A stretch of 4,948 nt of DNA, taken from a virus (taxonomy: Duplodnaviria; Heunggongvirae; Uroviricota; Caudoviricetes). Both the position numbers and the translations under genes were made by a program. The stretch lies in IMG/VR virus record IMGVR_UViG_3300029650_000085; one strand, 5' to 3'. Positions 1 through 4,948 of this stretch are shown one piece after another. Within the stretch, counting starts at the first letter, position 1. The number at the start of each line of letters is the position of its first letter. Below the pieces are notes generated by a model. The model was not told the origin of the DNA. It did not search any database and worked only from the letters and a program-made list of their open reading frames with translations.

Positions 1-186
1 TTCGGTTACCCGGGATTCACCTTCGCCAGCCAGAAACCAGGTGTGACCAGTTTTATCAACGACGCCTTTTCTTTTGAGTTCCCACAGCTCGTTGACAGCC
101 TCTTCACGACTGATTCCAAGGCGAGCTGCCACCACATGTGAAGAGGCTTTTTTCAGTGCTTTCAGTGCGTCAGATACGGTTTCCAT
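1..186 (-). CDS. Hypothetical protein, partial (ATG at 184-186; C-terminus lies beyond the window start); occupies the ydaW position downstream of ydaV
   Basis: Open minus-strand frame from ATG 184-186 to the window edge (62 codons, [41 protein letters not shown]...). GGAGGA sits 7 nt upstream (plus 194-199 tcctcc). It starts 21 nt after the ydaV stop, consistent with operon continuation. Not in the ORF track because it is truncated by the window edge. Confidence 0.5.
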
Positions 187-207
187 TAAAATTTCCTCCG
201 GACAAAA

Positions 208-954
208 TTACTTCACAACCCTCATATTGCTGACATTTGGACGCCAGCTATCCCAGTTAAACGTCACCCATCGACCACCGTTCATGGTCATGCGGTCCAT
301 AATCCTCTCACCAAGAAGCGTACTCATTGCGGCATGATTCAGGTTTGTTAACATCCCGACACTGCACAGTGATGCTGTCCGGCGATCAATTATCTGGTGC
401 AATACCACCTGCTCGTTTTTCGTCTCCCGCTGAACGCCTATTTCATCCAGGACCAGCAAATCAACCCCGCAAAGCTCCTGTAAAAATTTTTCCCCGGATT
501 TGCCGTTGTCGTAGCTGTCATGCAACACGCTCATGACGTCAGACACGGTGACGATAATCACGCTGCGCCCCTTCACCATCAGCCGGTTGCCCATCGCCGC
601 TGCAAGGTGATTTTTCCCGGTGCCGGTTTTACCGCTGAACACAAAATTCGTGCACCCGGTCATCAGTTCGTCAGCTATGGATTTGGCCTGGCTCAGCGCG
701 TATTTTTGCCCGTCGTTCTGCACCTGATAATTTGCAAACGAGCATTTGCTGTGCAGAGGCTGGATGCCCGAACGATTCAGGATTTTTTCCACCCGCAACT
801 GGCGATTCTGGCGGTTAATCTCCTCGCTGCGTTTTCGTCCTTCAGCAAGTTGCCATTCCCGCCACTCCTCCACCGTCCGGTACGGTGGAACCGACCCCTG
901 TGGTGCAAGTCTGCGAATACGTTCAAGAACCCCAACTGCCGCAATGTTTTTCAT
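208..954 (-). CDS. ydaV: DnaC-like replicative helicase loader (AAA+ ATPase), prophage replication protein
   Basis: 248-aa ORF with ATG at 952-954 and TAA at 208-210. Walker A-like FSGKTGTGKNHLAAA and Walker B DLLVLDEIG match the DnaC/IstB family signature as I recall it. The start lies 6 nt downstream of the upstream initiator gene stop. Length equals that of K-12 Rac YdaV (from memory). Confidence 0.9.
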   Translation of the reverse strand: MKNIAAVGVLERIRRLAPQGSVPPYRTVEEWREWQLAEGRKRSEEINRQNRQLRVEKILNRSGIQPLHSKCSFANYQVQNDGQKYALSQAKSIADELMTGCTNFVFSGKTGTGKNHLAAAMGNRLMVKGRSVIIVTVSDVMSVLHDSYDNGKSGEKFLQELCGVDLLVLDEIGVQRETKNEQVVLHQIIDRRTASLCSVGMLTNLNHAAMSTLLGERIMDRMTMNGGRWVTFNWDSWRPNVSNMRVVK

Positions 955-960
955 GACACG

Positions 961-1893
961 TCACCCCCTGAATCCCGGCGGTATTTCAGTGTCCGGTTCA
1001 GAAATGTGATTCACGCAACGCTGCGCAGGCGAACGCCCCAGGCGGATAACCAGTTCATCCCATTTTTCCCGGAGTTTTGCCGGACTCATGATGTTTTTTA
1101 CCCAGAACGAATCCCGCTGGAGACGCCCAAACATTTCACAAATTTGTCTGTGAGTTCTGCCATCCAGCATCCGCATTGTGCGAACGTCATTGGCCCATGC
1201 TGTCCAGTTGGGTTCTTTCGGTCTAGTGATCTCGCCATCATAGCTGGCCGCCTGCTCGTAAAGACTCACGATTCGTCCCCAGATCCACTGTGCGCACACC
1301 AAATCTTCCTGACTTCCCCACTGGCGTTTTTTCGCACTGAACACAACCGCGTCAGGGTGTCGGGTTAAAAAATCCTGTTCAGCCGTCTGCGGGTCCGGTT
1401 GCGAAGCGTCCGGACAAGAAGATCTTTTATCTGACGGATCAGGTTTTAATACTGACGGATCGGGGTCAATCATCGCCCCCCTAATCGGCAGTTTTTTATC
1501 AACAGTTGATCCATCAAAATTTGACGGGTCAACCGTTGAGGGGTCATTTTTTGCCGGGCTAATTTTTCTTTTCGGTTTATATGACTCACGCGCCGCCGCC
1601 GCAGCTGCTTCGAGTTTTTCCACATTAAGCCGATAGATATTGCTTACATTACGCCCACCGACCTTACGCTCTTCCTTCGTCAGCCAGCCCTCTTTCGCCA
1701 GTTCTGCAATAGCCGATTTCACTGTGGATTCACTTCTTGCACCGATCTGACGCCGGATAGTTTCAATGGCAGGCCATGACACGCCCTCGTCATTGCTGTA
1801 GTCTGCAAGACGGGCCATAACCGCCACCCTGGATAAGATCATGCCGGTGAAGGCGCACCCTTCCCAGACAAGACCATGAAGCTTGCTGCTCAT
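961..1893 (-). CDS. ydaU: Phage replication initiator / replisome organizer (lambda O-like, N-terminal winged-helix domain)
   Basis: Long minus-strand ORF with stop TGA at 961-963. The track start at 1908 is GTG; the first ATG is 1891-1893, preceded by GGGGG. The N-terminus (LSRVAVMARLADYSNDEGVSWPAIETIRRQIG...ELAKEGWL) looks like a winged-helix DNA-binding domain. The central Asp/Pro-rich linker is encoded by iteron-like DNA repeats. Start is uncertain: alternatives at 1842 or 1818 would give 293 or 285 aa. Confidence 0.8.
   Translation of the reverse strand: MSSKLHGLVWEGCAFTGMILSRVAVMARLADYSNDEGVSWPAIETIRRQIGARSESTVKSAIAELAKEGWLTKEERKVGGRNVSNIYRLNVEKLEAAAAAARESYKPKRKISPAKNDPSTVDPSNFDGSTVDKKLPIRGAMIDPDPSVLKPDPSDKRSSCPDASQPDPQTAEQDFLTRHPDAVVFSAKKRQWGSQEDLVCAQWIWGRIVSLYEQAASYDGEITRPKEPNWTAWANDVRTMRMLDGRTHRQICEMFGRLQRDSFWVKNIMSPAKLREKWDELVIRLGRSPAQRCVNHISEPDTEIPPGFRG
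1425..1585. other. Candidate replication origin inside the initiator gene: iteron-like repeats followed by an A/T-rich tract
   Basis: TGACGG(A/G)TC occurs three times (1432-1440, 1453-1461, 1522-1530). Palindrome TCAAC-N-GTTGA occurs twice (1499-1509, 1529-1539). GGGTCA recurs at 1463-1468, 1525-1530 and 1541-1546, followed by a T-rich tract 1545-1580 (cattttttgccgggctaatttttcttttcggtttat). Lambda-type origins lie inside the O gene with this layout. Confidence 0.4.
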
Positions 1894-1915
1894 AAAACCC
1901 CCGAACACCGTGCTT

Positions 1916-2341
1916 TTAGTGCATCACCACAGCATTCCCTGCCGGGCCGCCGCGATTCATCTGGTCATACAAAACAACCGCTGACGCAACAAAATCATCG
2001 ACATCCTTCACCAGCCGATCCCTCCGTTCGACGATCTCACGGTAATATTCAGAACTGTGGCTGCGCATACGGGCCACCAGCAAAGGCGGCATCGCCTTTT
2101 CGATCGCCGGTAACAGAGCCTGCATTTTTTCAACAGCATCAGGGGTGTCTTTATCCAGCCAACGGAAAATTTTCTGGGTATTACGGGCCAGGGCTTCCGG
2201 ATGGCTGTCGTCGTACAGTTCAGGGAACGTCATCCCCAGTTCGAAATAAGTCCGGGCTATTTCAGCTGCAGGAACTTTCTCACCATCAGGGTATGCCCAG
2301 GCATTCATCGCCATGCGGATGTGCTCATGTTTGATTTTCAT
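1916..2341 (-). CDS. ydaT: YdaT-family protein (CII-like; toxic when derepressed)
   Basis: 141-aa ORF with ATG at 2339-2341 and TAA at 1916-1918. N-terminus MKIKHEHIRMAMNAWA and length match my recollection of Rac YdaT. It overlaps the 3' end of the upstream Cro-like gene by 17 nt. Confidence 0.85.
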   Translation of the reverse strand: MKIKHEHIRMAMNAWAYPDGEKVPAAEIARTYFELGMTFPELYDDSHPEALARNTQKIFRWLDKDTPDAVEKMQALLPAIEKAMPPLLVARMRSHSSEYYREIVERRDRLVKDVDDFVASAVVLYDQMNRGGPAGNAVVMH

Positions 2342-2648
2342 GAATCATTTGCCTCTTGATGCTTCGGGTATGATCGTTTTCGTCATTTGGTTGCTTCATC
2401 GACATATTCTGCGAATAACATGACGAGCGTCGTAAGTATGTCCAATCAACATCAGGACGAAGTTCTTCACACAGGACACCACCTTTTGTTGCTCGTTCAA
2501 TCGCAGGACATCTCTCAGCAGGTAACTGACGTACACCTTTGATCCATTGATTTACGCTTGGAGGAGATACACCTAAAAGCCTAGCCATTGCTGATTGCCC
2601 ACCGACAACAGCACAAGCTCGTTTGAATGAATAGTTATCTTTTTTCAT
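2325..2648 (-). CDS. ydaS: YdaS-family Cro-like HTH DNA-binding protein
   Basis: The track ORF 2325..2669 starts at GTG; the first ATG (2646-2648) has GGAG 8 nt upstream and gives 107 aa (MKKDNYSFKRACAVVGGQSAMARLLGVSPPSVNQWIKGVRQLPAERCPAIERA...). HTH-like segment. Divergent from the repressor gene. Confidence 0.8.
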   Translation of the reverse strand: MKKDNYSFKRACAVVGGQSAMARLLGVSPPSVNQWIKGVRQLPAERCPAIERATKGGVLCEELRPDVDWTYLRRSSCYSQNMSMKQPNDENDHTRSIKRQMIHENQT

Positions 2649-2675
2649 CGAATGAACTCCAAAAAACACGCAACA

Positions 2676-2705
2676 ATATTAGGCTTAGCCTAATGAAATT
2701 GTCAA
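2676..2705 (-). promoter_or_regulatory. Leftward sigma70-type promoter for the ydaS-ydaT-ydaU-ydaV operon
   Basis: On the minus strand: -35 TTGACA (plus 2700-2705), 18-nt spacer, -10 TAATAT (plus 2676-2681). Both hexamers overlap operator palindromes. Predicted by eye only. Confidence 0.55.
2678..2694. promoter_or_regulatory. Operator palindrome ATTAGGC-TTA-GCCTAAT (7-bp perfect arms), overlapping the -10 of the leftward promoter
   Basis: Perfect dyad symmetry read directly from the sequence. Sits in the divergent repressor/cro-like intergenic region. Confidence 0.55.
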
Positions 2706-2721
2706 TAGGCTATGCCTAATA
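2699..2721. repeat. Left arm of a 23-bp perfect inverted repeat (ttgtcaataggctatgcctaata) bracketing the repressor gene
   Basis: Exact reverse complement of 3342-3364. Contains a -35 TTGACA (minus strand) and an operator half-palindrome. Confidence 0.9.
2704..2720. promoter_or_regulatory. Operator-like imperfect palindrome aATAGGC-TAT-GCCTAAt, overlapping the -35 of the leftward promoter
   Basis: Shares the TAGGC-N3-GCCTA core with the site at 2678-2694, with a 26-bp centre-to-centre spacing. Confidence 0.5.
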
Positions 2722-2772
2722 CATCGAGAGTAGGGATTGCCTAACGCGATGCGCATAGGAGACTATTAAGCA

Positions 2773-3249
2773 ATGCTTAGTGGTAAAGACTTAGGCCGAG
2801 CGATAGAGCAGGCCATTAACAAAAAAATTGCATCAGGAGCCGTCAAATCAAAGGCGGAAATCGCACGTCATTTCAAAGTCCAACCACCATCAATCCATGA
2901 CTGGATTAAGAAAGGTTCGATAAGTAAAGACAAACTTCCAGAACTATGGCGTTTCTTTTCTGATGTGGTTGGTCCAGAGCATTGGGGGCTTAACGAATAC
3001 CCCATACCAACCCCATCCACTTCAGATACAAAAAGTGAACTTTTAGACATAAACAGCCTTTATCAAGCCGCCTCTGATGAAAAAAAAGCAATTGTGGCTT
3101 TCATCTTATCTGGAAATGCTACGGAGCCTAGTTGGGTTGATTATGACGTTCGCGCCTACATTGCCGCAATGGAAATGAAGGTAGCTAACTATCTGAAAAA
3201 TCAAGAATCAAAACGGAAAAGCCAGAACATCACCAAGACAGGAACTTAA
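2773..3249 (+). CDS. racR: RacR-type prophage repressor (HTH)
   Basis: 158-aa ORF with ATG at 2773-2775 and TAA at 3247-3249. HTH-like segment SKAEIARHFKVQPPSIHDWIKKGSIS. Length and N-terminus match my recollection of Rac RacR. AGGAG at 2757-2761 lies 11 nt upstream. Divergent from the cro-like gene. Confidence 0.85.
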   Translation: MLSGKDLGRAIEQAINKKIASGAVKSKAEIARHFKVQPPSIHDWIKKGSISKDKLPELWRFFSDVVGPEHWGLNEYPIPTPSTSDTKSELLDINSLYQAASDEKKAIVAFILSGNATEPSWVDYDVRAYIAAMEMKVANYLKNQESKRKSQNITKTGT

Positions 3250-3341
3250 ACTTATATGGTCCGACGGGAAATTCCTAGTTCCCGTTAGTTAACTCCTACT
3301 ACCTCTCCCACAAACCATCACCTATTAGGTTGCGCCCAAAT

Positions 3342-3364
3342 TATTAGGCATAGCCTATTGACAA
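3342..3364. repeat. Right arm of the 23-bp perfect inverted repeat (tattaggcatagcctattgacaa)
   Basis: Exact reverse complement of 2699-2721. Carries the -35 TTGACA of the rightward promoter. Confidence 0.9.
3345..3361. promoter_or_regulatory. Operator-like palindrome ATTAGGC-ATA-GCCTAtt, overlapping the -35 of the rightward promoter
   Basis: Mirror copy of the 2704-2720 site. Further half-sites ATTAGG at 3324-3329 and 3368-3373. Confidence 0.45.
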
Positions 3365-3386
3365 GTAATTAGGCATTTCCTATAGT
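3358..3386 (+). promoter_or_regulatory. Rightward early promoter (TTGACA-N17-TATAGT) driving the small ORFs, DicF and the dicB-position ORF
   Basis: -35 TTGACA at 3358-3363, 17-nt spacer, -10 TATAGT at 3381-3386. The operator-like site 3368-3384 overlaps the spacer and -10. Predicted by eye only. Confidence 0.6.
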
Positions 3387-3567
3387 TTTCCCATACCAAC
3401 CCATCCCGTCCCACACAATACAGGGCAATACCTCGAGTTACCAGGCAGTGGTCAGGGGTTAAGTAGCCAGCCCGAGGCGTAAGAACATGACGGCAGGGTT
3501 CAACTTTAATAACTATGCAGCAGGTTTTTGTTCCGCTACCCCGGCGTTAAGGGGAAATGAGGTCAGC

Positions 3568-3720
3568 ATGGATACTATCGAGCTTGGCAACAACGAATCT
3601 CTGGTATGCGGCGTGTTTCCCAACCAGGACGGCACGTTTACCGCGATGACATATACCAGAAGCAAAACGTTTAAAACTGAAGCTGGCGCGCGTCGCTGGT
3701 TAACCAGAAACACTGACTGA
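3568..3720 (+). CDS. Small hypothetical protein (~50 aa), YdaF/YdfA-like by position
   Basis: ATG at 3568-3570 with GAGG 5 nt upstream; stop TGA at 3718-3720 overlaps the next ATG (ATGA). The track ORF could instead start at 3487 (77 aa, weaker RBS). The shorter form is chosen on RBS spacing and on the ~51-aa length I recall for the homologous small proteins. Confidence 0.5.
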   Translation: MDTIELGNNESLVCGVFPNQDGTFTAMTYTRSKTFKTEAGARRWLTRNTD

Positions 3721-4052
3721 TGAGGTTGACGATGGAATTTAAAGATTTACCAGTACCATTCCAGGAAATGGCATCGAATGTGGTTCGCTCTCAACTGGCG
3801 ACTCTTGACCTGAGTACCGTAGAAAAAGAAACCATCGACAATATATCCGGTAACGTACGCCGAGCCTTTATCGGGCTGTACGAAGAGAAGCAGCTCTCTG
3901 ATAACCAGGATTTACATGAAAAATACTTCCTGGATCTAATGGACATCATTGATAAGGGGTTTGGCTTGTTAATGAAAAAGAAAGGGATTCGAATAGAACC
4001 CCTTGAAAATTACTTTGCAACAAAAAGCATTAATTCTTTTGATTCAAAATAA
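3720..4052 (+). CDS. Hypothetical protein (110 aa), translationally coupled to the upstream small ORF
   Basis: ATG at 3720-3722 overlaps the upstream stop; alternative ATG at 3732 with GAGG upstream. TAA at 4050-4052. AT-rich coding sequence. The 3' end overlaps the convergent 91-aa ORF by 23 nt. Confidence 0.55.
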   Translation: MRLTMEFKDLPVPFQEMASNVVRSQLATLDLSTVEKETIDNISGNVRRAFIGLYEEKQLSDNQDLHEKYFLDLMDIIDKGFGLLMKKKGIRIEPLENYFATKSINSFDSK

Positions 4053-4305
4053 GAGAATTAATTACAGACTTAACATGCTCTTTCTCATGATTGAAGCTCT
4101 CATGATTGAAAGTGCCGGGTTGAAGCGAGTCGATATAATCAACAAGACTCTGTCGTACGACTTCATTTTTATCCATAACAGATGCAAGAAATGAAATTGC
4201 TAAAAGAGTTATATCACTACGCGCCGCAGCATGTTGCAATGCTTTATCAAAATTATTAATCTGGCGTATCAGGGAGTTAATGATTTCATCATTTTCAGTC
4301 GACAT
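4030..4305 (-). CDS. Hypothetical small protein (91 aa), antisense to the rightward early operon
   Basis: ATG at 4303-4305 preceded by a consensus AGGAGG with 5-nt spacing; TAA at 4030-4032. One hydrophobic segment (ITLLAISFLASVM) and a tandem FNHES/FNHEKE repeat (DNA direct repeat ctcatgattgaa at 4083-4094 and 4099-4110). The track ORF extends to 4638 (TTG start) through a GC-rich Arg-rich frame that I consider non-coding. Confidence 0.5.
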   Translation of the reverse strand: MSTENDEIINSLIRQINNFDKALQHAAARSDITLLAISFLASVMDKNEVVRQSLVDYIDSLQPGTFNHESFNHEKEHVKSVINSLILNQKN

Positions 4306-4639
4306 TTCACCCTCCTGAGGGTTGGTGATTAAGGAGTTCTCCACGGGTGAGGTGGAGTGCGTGCGCCGGACACGGGTGAGCATCCGGCACTGACAGTTTA
4401 CTGAAAGGATATTTCCCTGAAAAGTCAGACCATAACGCGAAAGCGCCCGGCGAGGTAGCTGGTTCATAGATAGCCTGTCGTTAAATTTTCGTCGACCGTG
4501 CGTTTCCGGTTGTGGCAATCCGCGAAATGGCGCGGCGGTAAGTATGGCGGGGTTATTCCTTCCCCGTTGAGGACACCGAGTTGTCAGGTTGACCATACGC
4601 TTAAGCGACAACCCCGCTGCAACGCCCTCTGTTATCAAT

Positions 4640-4697
4640 TTTCTGGTGACGTTTGGCGGTATCAGTTTTACTCCGTGACTGCTCTGCCGCCCTTTTT
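4640..4697 (+). ncRNA. dicF: DicF-type small RNA (cell-division/ftsZ-targeting sRNA of the dicB operon)
   Basis: The sequence tttctggtgacgtttggcggtatcagttttactccgtgactgctctgccgccc (4640-4692, 53 nt) followed by TTTTT matches the DicF sequence as I remember it. It lies between upstream small ORFs and a downstream short ORF, as in the Qin dicB operon. Recalled, not searched. Confidence 0.75.
4655..4697 (+). terminator. Intrinsic terminator hairpin forming the DicF 3' end
   Basis: GGCGG (4655-4659) pairs with CCGCC (4687-4691), with internal CAGU/ACUG pairing, followed by a T5 tract at 4693-4697. Confidence 0.6.
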
Positions 4698-4700
4698 AAA

Positions 4701-4720
4701 GTGAATTTTGTGATGTGGTG
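4701..4720 (+). repeat. 5' arm of a long-range inverted repeat (potential 20-bp RNA duplex with 4831-4850)
   Basis: tgaattttgtgatg (4702-4715) is the exact reverse complement of catcacaaaattca (4836-4849). Flanking positions extend the pairing with G-U wobbles. Confidence 0.8.
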
Positions 4721-4830
4721 AATGCGGCTGAGCGCACGCGGAACAGTTAAAACCAAAAACAGTGTTATGGGTGGATTCTCTGTATCCGGCGTTAATTGTT
4801 AACTGGTTAACGTCACCTGGAGGCACCAGG

Positions 4831-4850
4831 CACTGCATCACAAAATTCAT
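4831..4850 (+). repeat. 3' arm of the long-range inverted repeat, ending 4 nt before the SD of the dicB-position ORF
   Basis: See the 4701-4720 arm. The GAGG Shine-Dalgarno at 4855-4858 is immediately downstream. Confidence 0.8.
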
Positions 4851-4866
4851 TGTTGAGGACGCGATA

Positions 4867-4948
4867 ATGAAAACGTTATTACCAAACGTTAAGGAAGGTG
4901 CGAATAAGCGGGGAAATTCTTCTCGGCTGACTCAGTCATTTCATTTCT
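4867..4948 (+). CDS. Short ORF in the dicB position, partial (N-terminal 27 codons; continues beyond the window end)
   Basis: ATG at 4867-4869 with GAGG 8 nt upstream (MKTLLPNVKEGANKRGNSSRLTQSFHF...). Lies about 170 nt downstream of DicF, as dicB does in Qin. Identity with DicB is not verified. Confidence 0.45.
   Translation, partial: MKTLLPNVKEGANKRGNSSRLTQSFHF

Follow-up and report, generated by a model that had tools for sequence, protein, structure and literature searches.

The spacer between the DicF small RNA (sRNA) and dicB contains a long-range helix of 21 bp, which is a selected RNA structure and neither a coincidence nor a DNA-level repeat; we conclude this because both arms of the helix, as well as two of the hairpins that they enclose (P4 and P5), covary among relatives. 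The helix is probably the lengthened outer stem (P1) of a multi-hairpin RNA module, at which RNase III cuts the read-through RNA and thus frees DicF, the core of the module, and the dicB message from one another. The sequence analyzed here (hereafter, “the window”) is the whole stretch of 4,948 nt, and all coordinates refer to it unless another record is named.

The window derives from a Rac/Qin-type lambdoid prophage of E. coli, of which it covers the immunity and early-left region. Its minus strand carries genes for an IstB/DnaC-like ATPase, an HTH replication protein, YdaT, and a YdaS/Cro-like protein; a RacR-type repressor and a DUF1391 protein of the YdfA/YdaF kind are encoded on the plus strand. 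Positions 1–4892 are 99.9% identical to prophages of several complete E. coli genomes, and the part from DicF to codon 8 of dicB (4640–4892) is 100% identical to K-12 MG1655, for which coordinates were converted as window = NC_000913.3 minus 1,644,742. At least 80% of window 4600–4948 is present in 3,883 of 5,426 complete E. coli genomes. The DicF assignment is supported by a match to Rfam RF00039 at 4641–4692 (76.7 bits vs. a gathering score of 48).

The sequence departs from K-12 within dicB, at a terminal sequence that we take to be the end of IS5; in a related locus, the same dicB junction carries an annotated IS5 transposase. This end begins GGAAGGTGCGAATAAGCGGGG... and is preceded by the 4 bp TTAA (4889–4892); beyond the junction, the dicB sequence of K-12 runs ...GTTAATACGTCT. 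Because dicB is interrupted by IS5, DicB cannot be made from the window copy. DicF and the DicF–dicB spacer are intact despite the insertion. The features of this region are listed below.

4640–4692, plus strand: DicF sRNA, 53-nt form (the K-12 dicF annotation, 1649382–1649434)
4693–4697, plus strand: U-tract of the DicF intrinsic terminator (whole element, 4640–4697)
4700–4720, plus strand: 5′ arm of the helix (extended P1), from repeat search, fold, scan, and covariation
4724–4739, plus strand: hairpin P2 (GCGGCUGAGCGCACGC), found in MFE folds and nearly invariant in the in-operon subfamily
4740–4787, plus strand: variable hairpin region P3, which differs in length and sequence among relatives
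4788–4814, plus strand: hairpin P4 (GGCGUUAAUUG-UUAACUG-GUUAACGUC), with an invariant loop
4816–4830, plus strand: hairpin P5 (CCUGG-AGGCA-CCAGG), a motif better conserved than any other across the STnc100 superfamily
4831–4851, plus strand: 3′ arm of the helix, from repeat search, fold, scan, and covariation
4855–4858, plus strand: Shine-Dalgarno sequence of dicB (GAGG), from the sequence
4867–4869, plus strand: ATG of dicB (the K-12 dicB annotation starts at 1649609, i.e., window 4867)
4867–4892, plus strand: dicB remnant, the first 8–9 codons, K-12-identical up to 4892
4893–4948, strand not given: end of the IS5 element inserted in dicB, from the departure from K-12 at 4893

Other elements of the window deserve mention. 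Two ORFs, 3732–4052 (plus strand, 106 aa) and 4030–4305 (minus strand, 91 aa), lie between the DUF1391 gene and DicF, where K-12 has ydfB/ydfC; a Pfam search returned no match for either of them. The 91-aa ORF runs antisense to the operon, with GGAGGG as its ribosome-binding site. Repeated ATTAGGC(A/T)TAGCCTAAT-like palindromes at 2679–2721 and 3339–3385 flank the divergent Cro-like and RacR-like genes, and downstream of the repressor gene, palindromes of the ATTAGGC type overlap with a promoter-like sequence as well (TTGACA...TATAGT). These are probably operators, together with the equivalent of the promoter dicBp.

The preliminary description of this DNA had identified 4702–4715 and 4836–4849 as exact reverse complements. 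A direct scan bore this out, with 14 perfect Watson-Crick pairs. The same description had extended the pairing with wobbles to a duplex of about 20 bp; such a duplex is indeed present, but its length is 21 bp, the extra pair being A4700–U4851. A repeat search delimited the arms as 4702–4720 and 4831–4849, and the direct scan, in which G·U pairs were allowed, yielded 21 contiguous and ungapped pairs between 4700–4720 and 4831–4851. Three of these are wobbles: G4701·U4850, U4716·G4835, and G4717·U4834. On the opposite strand they would be C·A mismatches, and the structure therefore belongs to the plus-strand transcript, which runs in the direction of the operon. In dinucleotide-preserving shuffles of the whole window, at least 14 perfect pairs were encountered in 1 of 200, and 21 pairs with wobble in none of 200. 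The helix also has the size of an RNase III substrate (about 20–22 bp, or two helical turns, of mostly uninterrupted double-stranded RNA).

RNA folding had been proposed as a check on the duplex. When 4690–4870 was folded with RNAfold, the helix appeared in the MFE and centroid structures alike, closing a multi-branch fold with four hairpins (−65.1 kcal/mol, z = −4.8; 0 of 200 shuffles were equally stable). The enclosed segment measures 110 nt, as previously stated; the “repeats” ascribed to it are the four hairpins, and no direct repeats were found in it. The 3′ arm ends 3–4 nt before the GAGG, in agreement with the 4 nt given earlier. No promoter-like or terminator-like site was detected on the plus strand of 4700–4866, nor was there an intrinsic terminator or attenuator at the 3′ arm, after which CAUUGUUGAGG comes next.

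Published work on K-12 bears directly on the function of the helix. A 72-nt form of DicF has been described that derives from full-length dicBF mRNA and owes its 3′ end to RNase III (Faubladier et al. 1990, as relayed by PMC5069750 and PMC9438474). On these accounts, the RNase III-dependent end lies 19 nt beyond that of terminated DicF and maps to ~4711 (4640 + 71), a position that assumes the annotated 5′ end at 4640 and is uncertain by a few nucleotides. So placed, it coincides with the center of the 5′ arm, 11 bp from the outer end of the helix and 9–10 bp from the inner end. A second line of evidence comes from Table S1 of Gordon et al. 2017, in which position 1649470 (window 4728), assigned to dicF–dicB, is rnc-dependent and marked as known. 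There, no reads were recorded in the wild type and 26 in the rnc mutant; these 26 reads are unstranded, derive from a repressed operon, and fall inside the enclosed segment, off the arms.

The geometry of RNase III cleavage allows the partner cut to be placed. The enzyme has a binding valley of ~22 bp and cuts twice, with a stagger of 2 nt; in vivo the two pairs between the cuts are paired, usually with a G-C among them (Altuvia et al., PMC6212723). Given a cut after 4711, the pairs between the cuts would be G4710–C4841 and U4711–A4840, which accords with this pairing rule. From the geometry of a 2-nt 3′ overhang, we infer that the partner cut on the 3′ arm would lie between ~4841 and 4842.

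A 2023 study of dicBF (PMC10448788) confirmed processing by RNase III as well as RNase E and did not find an internal operon promoter. The one RNase III site that it takes up is that responsible for the 5′ end of the 190-nt DicF, and it makes no mention of a site 3′ of DicF. We sought a duplex for that upstream site in a fold of 4320–4700, which was not significant (z = −0.66), and a literature search for Term-seq or other 3′-end data on dicB returned nothing relevant. The proposal that the duplex governs processing of the polycistronic transcript by RNase III is thus supported, but it is not new: because the spacer is identical to that of K-12 and an RNase III-made end has been published there, this reading was essentially already known.

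With these data, processing at the helix may be envisioned as follows. Most transcripts stop at the DicF terminator, and those that read through would fold into a four-hairpin module of ~150 nt. In such RNA the arms, 110 nt apart, would pair as ~21 bp of double-stranded RNA that fits an RNase III dimer, and the enzyme would cut near the center of the helix, at ~4711 (the reported end) and ~4841/4842 (the inferred one). The double cut would separate DicF from the dicB message, leaving the latter with a leader of ~25 nt, and would release a core RNA of ~130 nt (4712–4841). The 72-nt DicF might then be trimmed by exonucleases back to the terminator hairpin. As for the core, the zero wild-type reads at 4728 argue against its being a stable RNA under the growth conditions of that experiment.

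We next consider the origin of the module. Searching viral contigs for the motif TCACCNGGAGGCACNNGGC turned up 120 loci. In Rfam, window 4704–4844 matches RF02076 (STnc100) with 34.1 bits (E = 8.2e-5), which is below the gathering score of 47; by the Rfam criterion, it is thus not an STnc100 member. The alignment covers model positions 21–154, including the closing helix, which coincides with the inner part of the window duplex. Sister copies of the window element score 33–44 bits against this model, and bona fide STnc100 copies 68–132 bits. Conversely, a covariance model built from the in-operon subtype to which the window belongs matches STnc100-type copies at 28–65 bits, with the caveat that these loci had been collected via a shared 19-nt motif. 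The two groups have a common order of elements (P1, AAU, P2, a variable hairpin, P4, P5, and the returning P1 strand) and common motifs (GGUGAAU and UCACCNGGAGGCACNNGGCAC). Judged by these model matches and the shared layout, the window element is a diverged relative of the STnc100/PasD family of prophage sRNAs.

The two groups differ in their genomic setting and in the length of P1. STnc100-type copies stand alone as genes and are often preceded by promoter-like sequence and followed by a terminator. Unlike them, the window element has no promoter or terminator of its own; it is embedded in an operon, with a coding gene directly downstream, and copies of its subtype, likewise without a terminator, are followed by an ORF start within ~15–70 nt. 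A downstream run of at least five T residues accompanies 43 of 81 STnc100-type copies vs. 1 of 45 in-operon copies. The median length of ungapped P1 is 21 bp in the in-operon copies and 8 bp (maximum, 9 bp) in the stand-alone STnc100-type ones.

In several viral contigs, bona fide STnc100 genes also occur as three tandem copies with a spacing of 253 nt (L030, 342–1038; also L050, L103, and L121), and each tandem copy has its own terminator. A put-like processive antiterminator RNA was considered for the window element and rejected on position, as the element is downstream of the DicF terminator; terminators of the stand-alone relatives' own, ~60 nt further on, are additional counter-evidence.

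The kinship invites a different interpretation of the helix, namely that it is the architectural closing stem of an STnc100-kind domain and not an RNase III target, and that the 72-nt end arises from another structure. The helix would then hold the four hairpins for some other function, e.g., protein binding or stability. All members of the superfamily do have a closing stem, for which 8–9 bp suffice in the stand-alone ones; the interior loops are invariant across the family, suggesting that the domain has a function of its own; and the silence of PMC10448788 on a 3′ RNase III site would fit. We nevertheless regard this interpretation as unlikely, for it leaves three things unexplained: the lengthening to ~21 bp, which is specific to the in-operon copies; the mapping of the published RNase III-made 3′ end to the center of the 5′ arm; and the rnc-dependent coverage in the spacer.

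The element is not confined to dicBF. BLAST searches against phage genomes found diverged copies at 79–90% identity, and similarity to the diverged phages ends at window 4851, the last base of the 3′ arm. In these phages the element stands just upstream of kilR (Rac-type and Stx phages), terB (P7 and D6), or other small ORFs. K-12 has a second copy in Rac, where the sRNA KilS (b4833) and its terminator are followed by the same structured spacer and then by kilR:

L129 2731–3003 (NC_000913.3 1418230–1418502), minus strand: KilS, spacer, and kilR of Rac

The Rac helix is ~28–30 bp long with one bulge; helices of this type run through the U-tract of the KilS terminator and reach as far as the GG of the kilR ribosome-binding site. 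Among the entries in Table S1 of Gordon et al. 2017 is an rnc-dependent position in kilR–sieB, K-12 1418510 (L129 ~3011, minus strand). This position is 8 nt upstream of the KilS 5′ end and thus outside the kilS–kilR spacer, and it therefore has no bearing on the sister helix. Perhaps it corresponds, in Rac, to the upstream RNase III site that generates the 190-nt DicF.

In the P1-like phages P7 (L007 1501–1616) and D6, the element is located just upstream of terB and its closing stem has 9 bp. Since P1 of the P7 type is so short, the long stem is not essential to the module itself. Also in the operon of the P7/D6 element are tRNA genes and ban; ~110 nt upstream of the P7-type element there is a tRNA-like sequence that scores just below threshold. 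In four contigs of Klebsiella-like phages (L097, L038, L020, and L008), a long-stem module precedes hydrophobic ORFs of 36–67 aa, such as MSRNGIRSLVIVLAICLVAW...; these are possibly membrane-active, host-killing peptides.

The proximity of the 3′ arm to the Shine-Dalgarno sequence raises the matter of dicB translation. In uncut read-through RNA, the helix is predicted to be extended by pairing of the terminator's C-UUU (4692–4695) with GAGG (4855–4858). The predicted unpaired probability of the dicB ribosome-binding site is 0.03–0.11 in this RNA and 0.2–0.5 after a cut at 4842. The helix and its extension would thus lower access to the ribosome-binding site in uncut RNA, and cleavage would license translation of dicB as well as yield mature DicF. 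An activating effect of cleavage on dicB translation is plausible by analogy with the lambda N leader. Control of dicB translation by the helix is hypothetical, and only a prediction from RNA folding.

One might go further and propose that the helix is mainly an RNase III-independent clamp on dicB, acting on translation or stability and silencing the toxic DicB in read-through RNA by means of a rigid duplex upstream of the ribosome-binding site and the pairing of the terminator U-tract to that site. The low predicted accessibility of the site in the full-length fold speaks for a clamp, as do the extension of the Rac-type helix to the GG of the kilR site and the toxicity of the downstream gene products (DicB and KilR) to the host. 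Yet the pairing to the dicB site, itself predicted, amounts to four weak pairs on the far side of an internal loop, in competition with the terminator hairpin, and the 3′ arm proper falls short of the site. As the main role of the helix, a clamp of this sort seems improbable to us; it is also compatible with the RNase III model and does not exclude it.

Is the pairing itself maintained by selection? Alignment A1 comprises 23 distinct arm variants of the window's subtype. Over the 21 helix pairs, 92.8% of the cells in A1 are paired, and 12 of the 21 pairs have both partners changed; in controls in which the partner was slid by 1–3 columns, 33–42% of the cells were paired. The observed covariation was reached by none of 500 shuffles. 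A compensatory change is exemplified by L083, in which GUGAAU/AUUCAU has become GCGAAU/AUUCGC. Two of the Klebsiella-like phage contigs (L038 and L097) have a wholly different outer stem that forms a perfect duplex of 22 bp.

Hairpins of the interior behave similarly in A1. P4 has 10 pairs, 5 of which changed on both sides, with 93.9% of cells paired, and a U-A pair of P5 is changed to G-C in 8 of the 23 sequences. P2 is paired in 100% of cells, nearly without variation. The alignment is gap-rich over P3, whose structure is an MFE prediction only.

The loops within 4800–4830 are invariant in the window and all A1 relatives. The loop region of P4 is GUUAACUGG, and the pattern of P5, CC-N-GGAGGCAC-N-GG, displays a Shine-Dalgarno-like GGAGG. 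Such conservation suggests that the loops bind a partner or make a tertiary contact, which the RNase III model leaves unexplained.

These alignments also speak to the notion that the arms are a DNA-level inverted repeat, i.e., the repeated ends of a small cassette that moves or recombines, or else a palindrome bound by protein. Phage-to-phage similarity begins and ends at the arms, and the module is found upstream of unrelated genes, as would befit a cassette of this kind. The arms, however, tolerate G·U but not C·A, a strand specificity that points to RNA; pairing is kept by compensation while the sequence changes altogether, as in L038 and L097; and the interior covaries as RNA hairpins. We therefore think a DNA-level repeat very unlikely. 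A MITE-like element was rejected separately: the flanks of the arms carry no target-site duplication, and the arm changes are compensatory and G·U-specific. That the inverted repeat is a functionless product of chance is barely credible, for the single shuffle with a perfect repeat of at least 14 nt somewhere in 4.9 kb is outweighed by the absence of any shuffle with 21 wobble-inclusive pairs and by the occurrence in 3,883 of 5,426 E. coli genomes, and the covariation in A1 refutes a chance origin of the helix.

Cleavage of the read-through RNA by RNase III at the lengthened P1 is thus the reading that we prefer. DicF and DicB are textbook prophage-encoded inhibitors of cell division, and when either of them acts depends on how the operon divides a single transcript between an sRNA and a toxic small protein. 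What is added to the result of 1990 is a structural explanation, in which the reported cut falls at the center of a 21-bp long-range helix, and evolutionary support. Three points appear to be undescribed in the literature searched: the kinship with STnc100/PasD, the lengthening of the stem in the in-operon copies, and the recurrence of the site upstream of small host-directed genes.

A broader reading can be offered tentatively, as something possible that we would hesitate to call probable. The spacer may be a portable module of ~150 nt, representing the in-operon branch of STnc100/PasD, whose stem was lengthened from ~8 bp to at least 20 bp for excision by RNase III, whose core RNA is functional, and which gates a toxic gene. 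Enterobacterial temperate phages would place this module before dicB, kilR, terB, or short membrane peptides, and in E. coli it would always come after an sRNA with a terminator (DicF or KilS). The toxic gene would then be translated only from transcripts that have been read through and processed. The recurrence before kilR, terB, and the membrane peptides of Klebsiella-like phages suggests a reusable RNA cassette that gates toxic accessory genes, and the kinship with STnc100/PasD provides a path along which stand-alone sRNA genes could turn into mRNA leaders, and vice versa. The cassette idea is testable in K-12, which carries two copies.

The proposed arrangement has parallels in known systems. 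In the processing stems of 16S and 23S rRNA, a long-range duplex of the flanks is cut twice, and a structured RNA is thereby freed from a polycistronic transcript. The window duplex likewise joins sequences that flank a structured RNA; unlike in the rRNA operons, the enclosed RNA is only ~130 nt, and its release and stability are a proposal. RNase III cleavage in the lambda N leader, as Kameyama and co-workers in 1991 and Wilson and co-workers in 2002 are said to have found, raises translation downstream. Like that site, the window helix belongs to a structure in the leader of an early pL-operon gene, immediately upstream of a ribosome-binding site. In lambda the site consists of a local hairpin tied to nutL and to N autoregulation, whereas the window site is the closing stem, spanning 110 nt, of a multi-hairpin module that follows an sRNA terminator.

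In Campylobacter jejuni, RNase III co-processes both sides of the CJnc190 precursor via a long duplex between its 5′ and 3′ flanks (PMC8687705). The organism and sequence are unrelated to those of the window, and the RNA enclosed by that duplex is the functional sRNA. The kilS–kilR locus (Bar et al. 2021) resembles dicF–dicB in having an Hfq-binding sRNA with a terminator, the same structured spacer with a long closing helix, and a small division inhibitor; it differs in the identities of the sRNA and the downstream gene, and in its helix, which is bulged and reaches further. Finally, the site studied here is the same as that of the K-12 dicBF operon (Faubladier, Cam and Bouché 1990), and only the dicB gene of the window, broken by IS5, sets the two apart.
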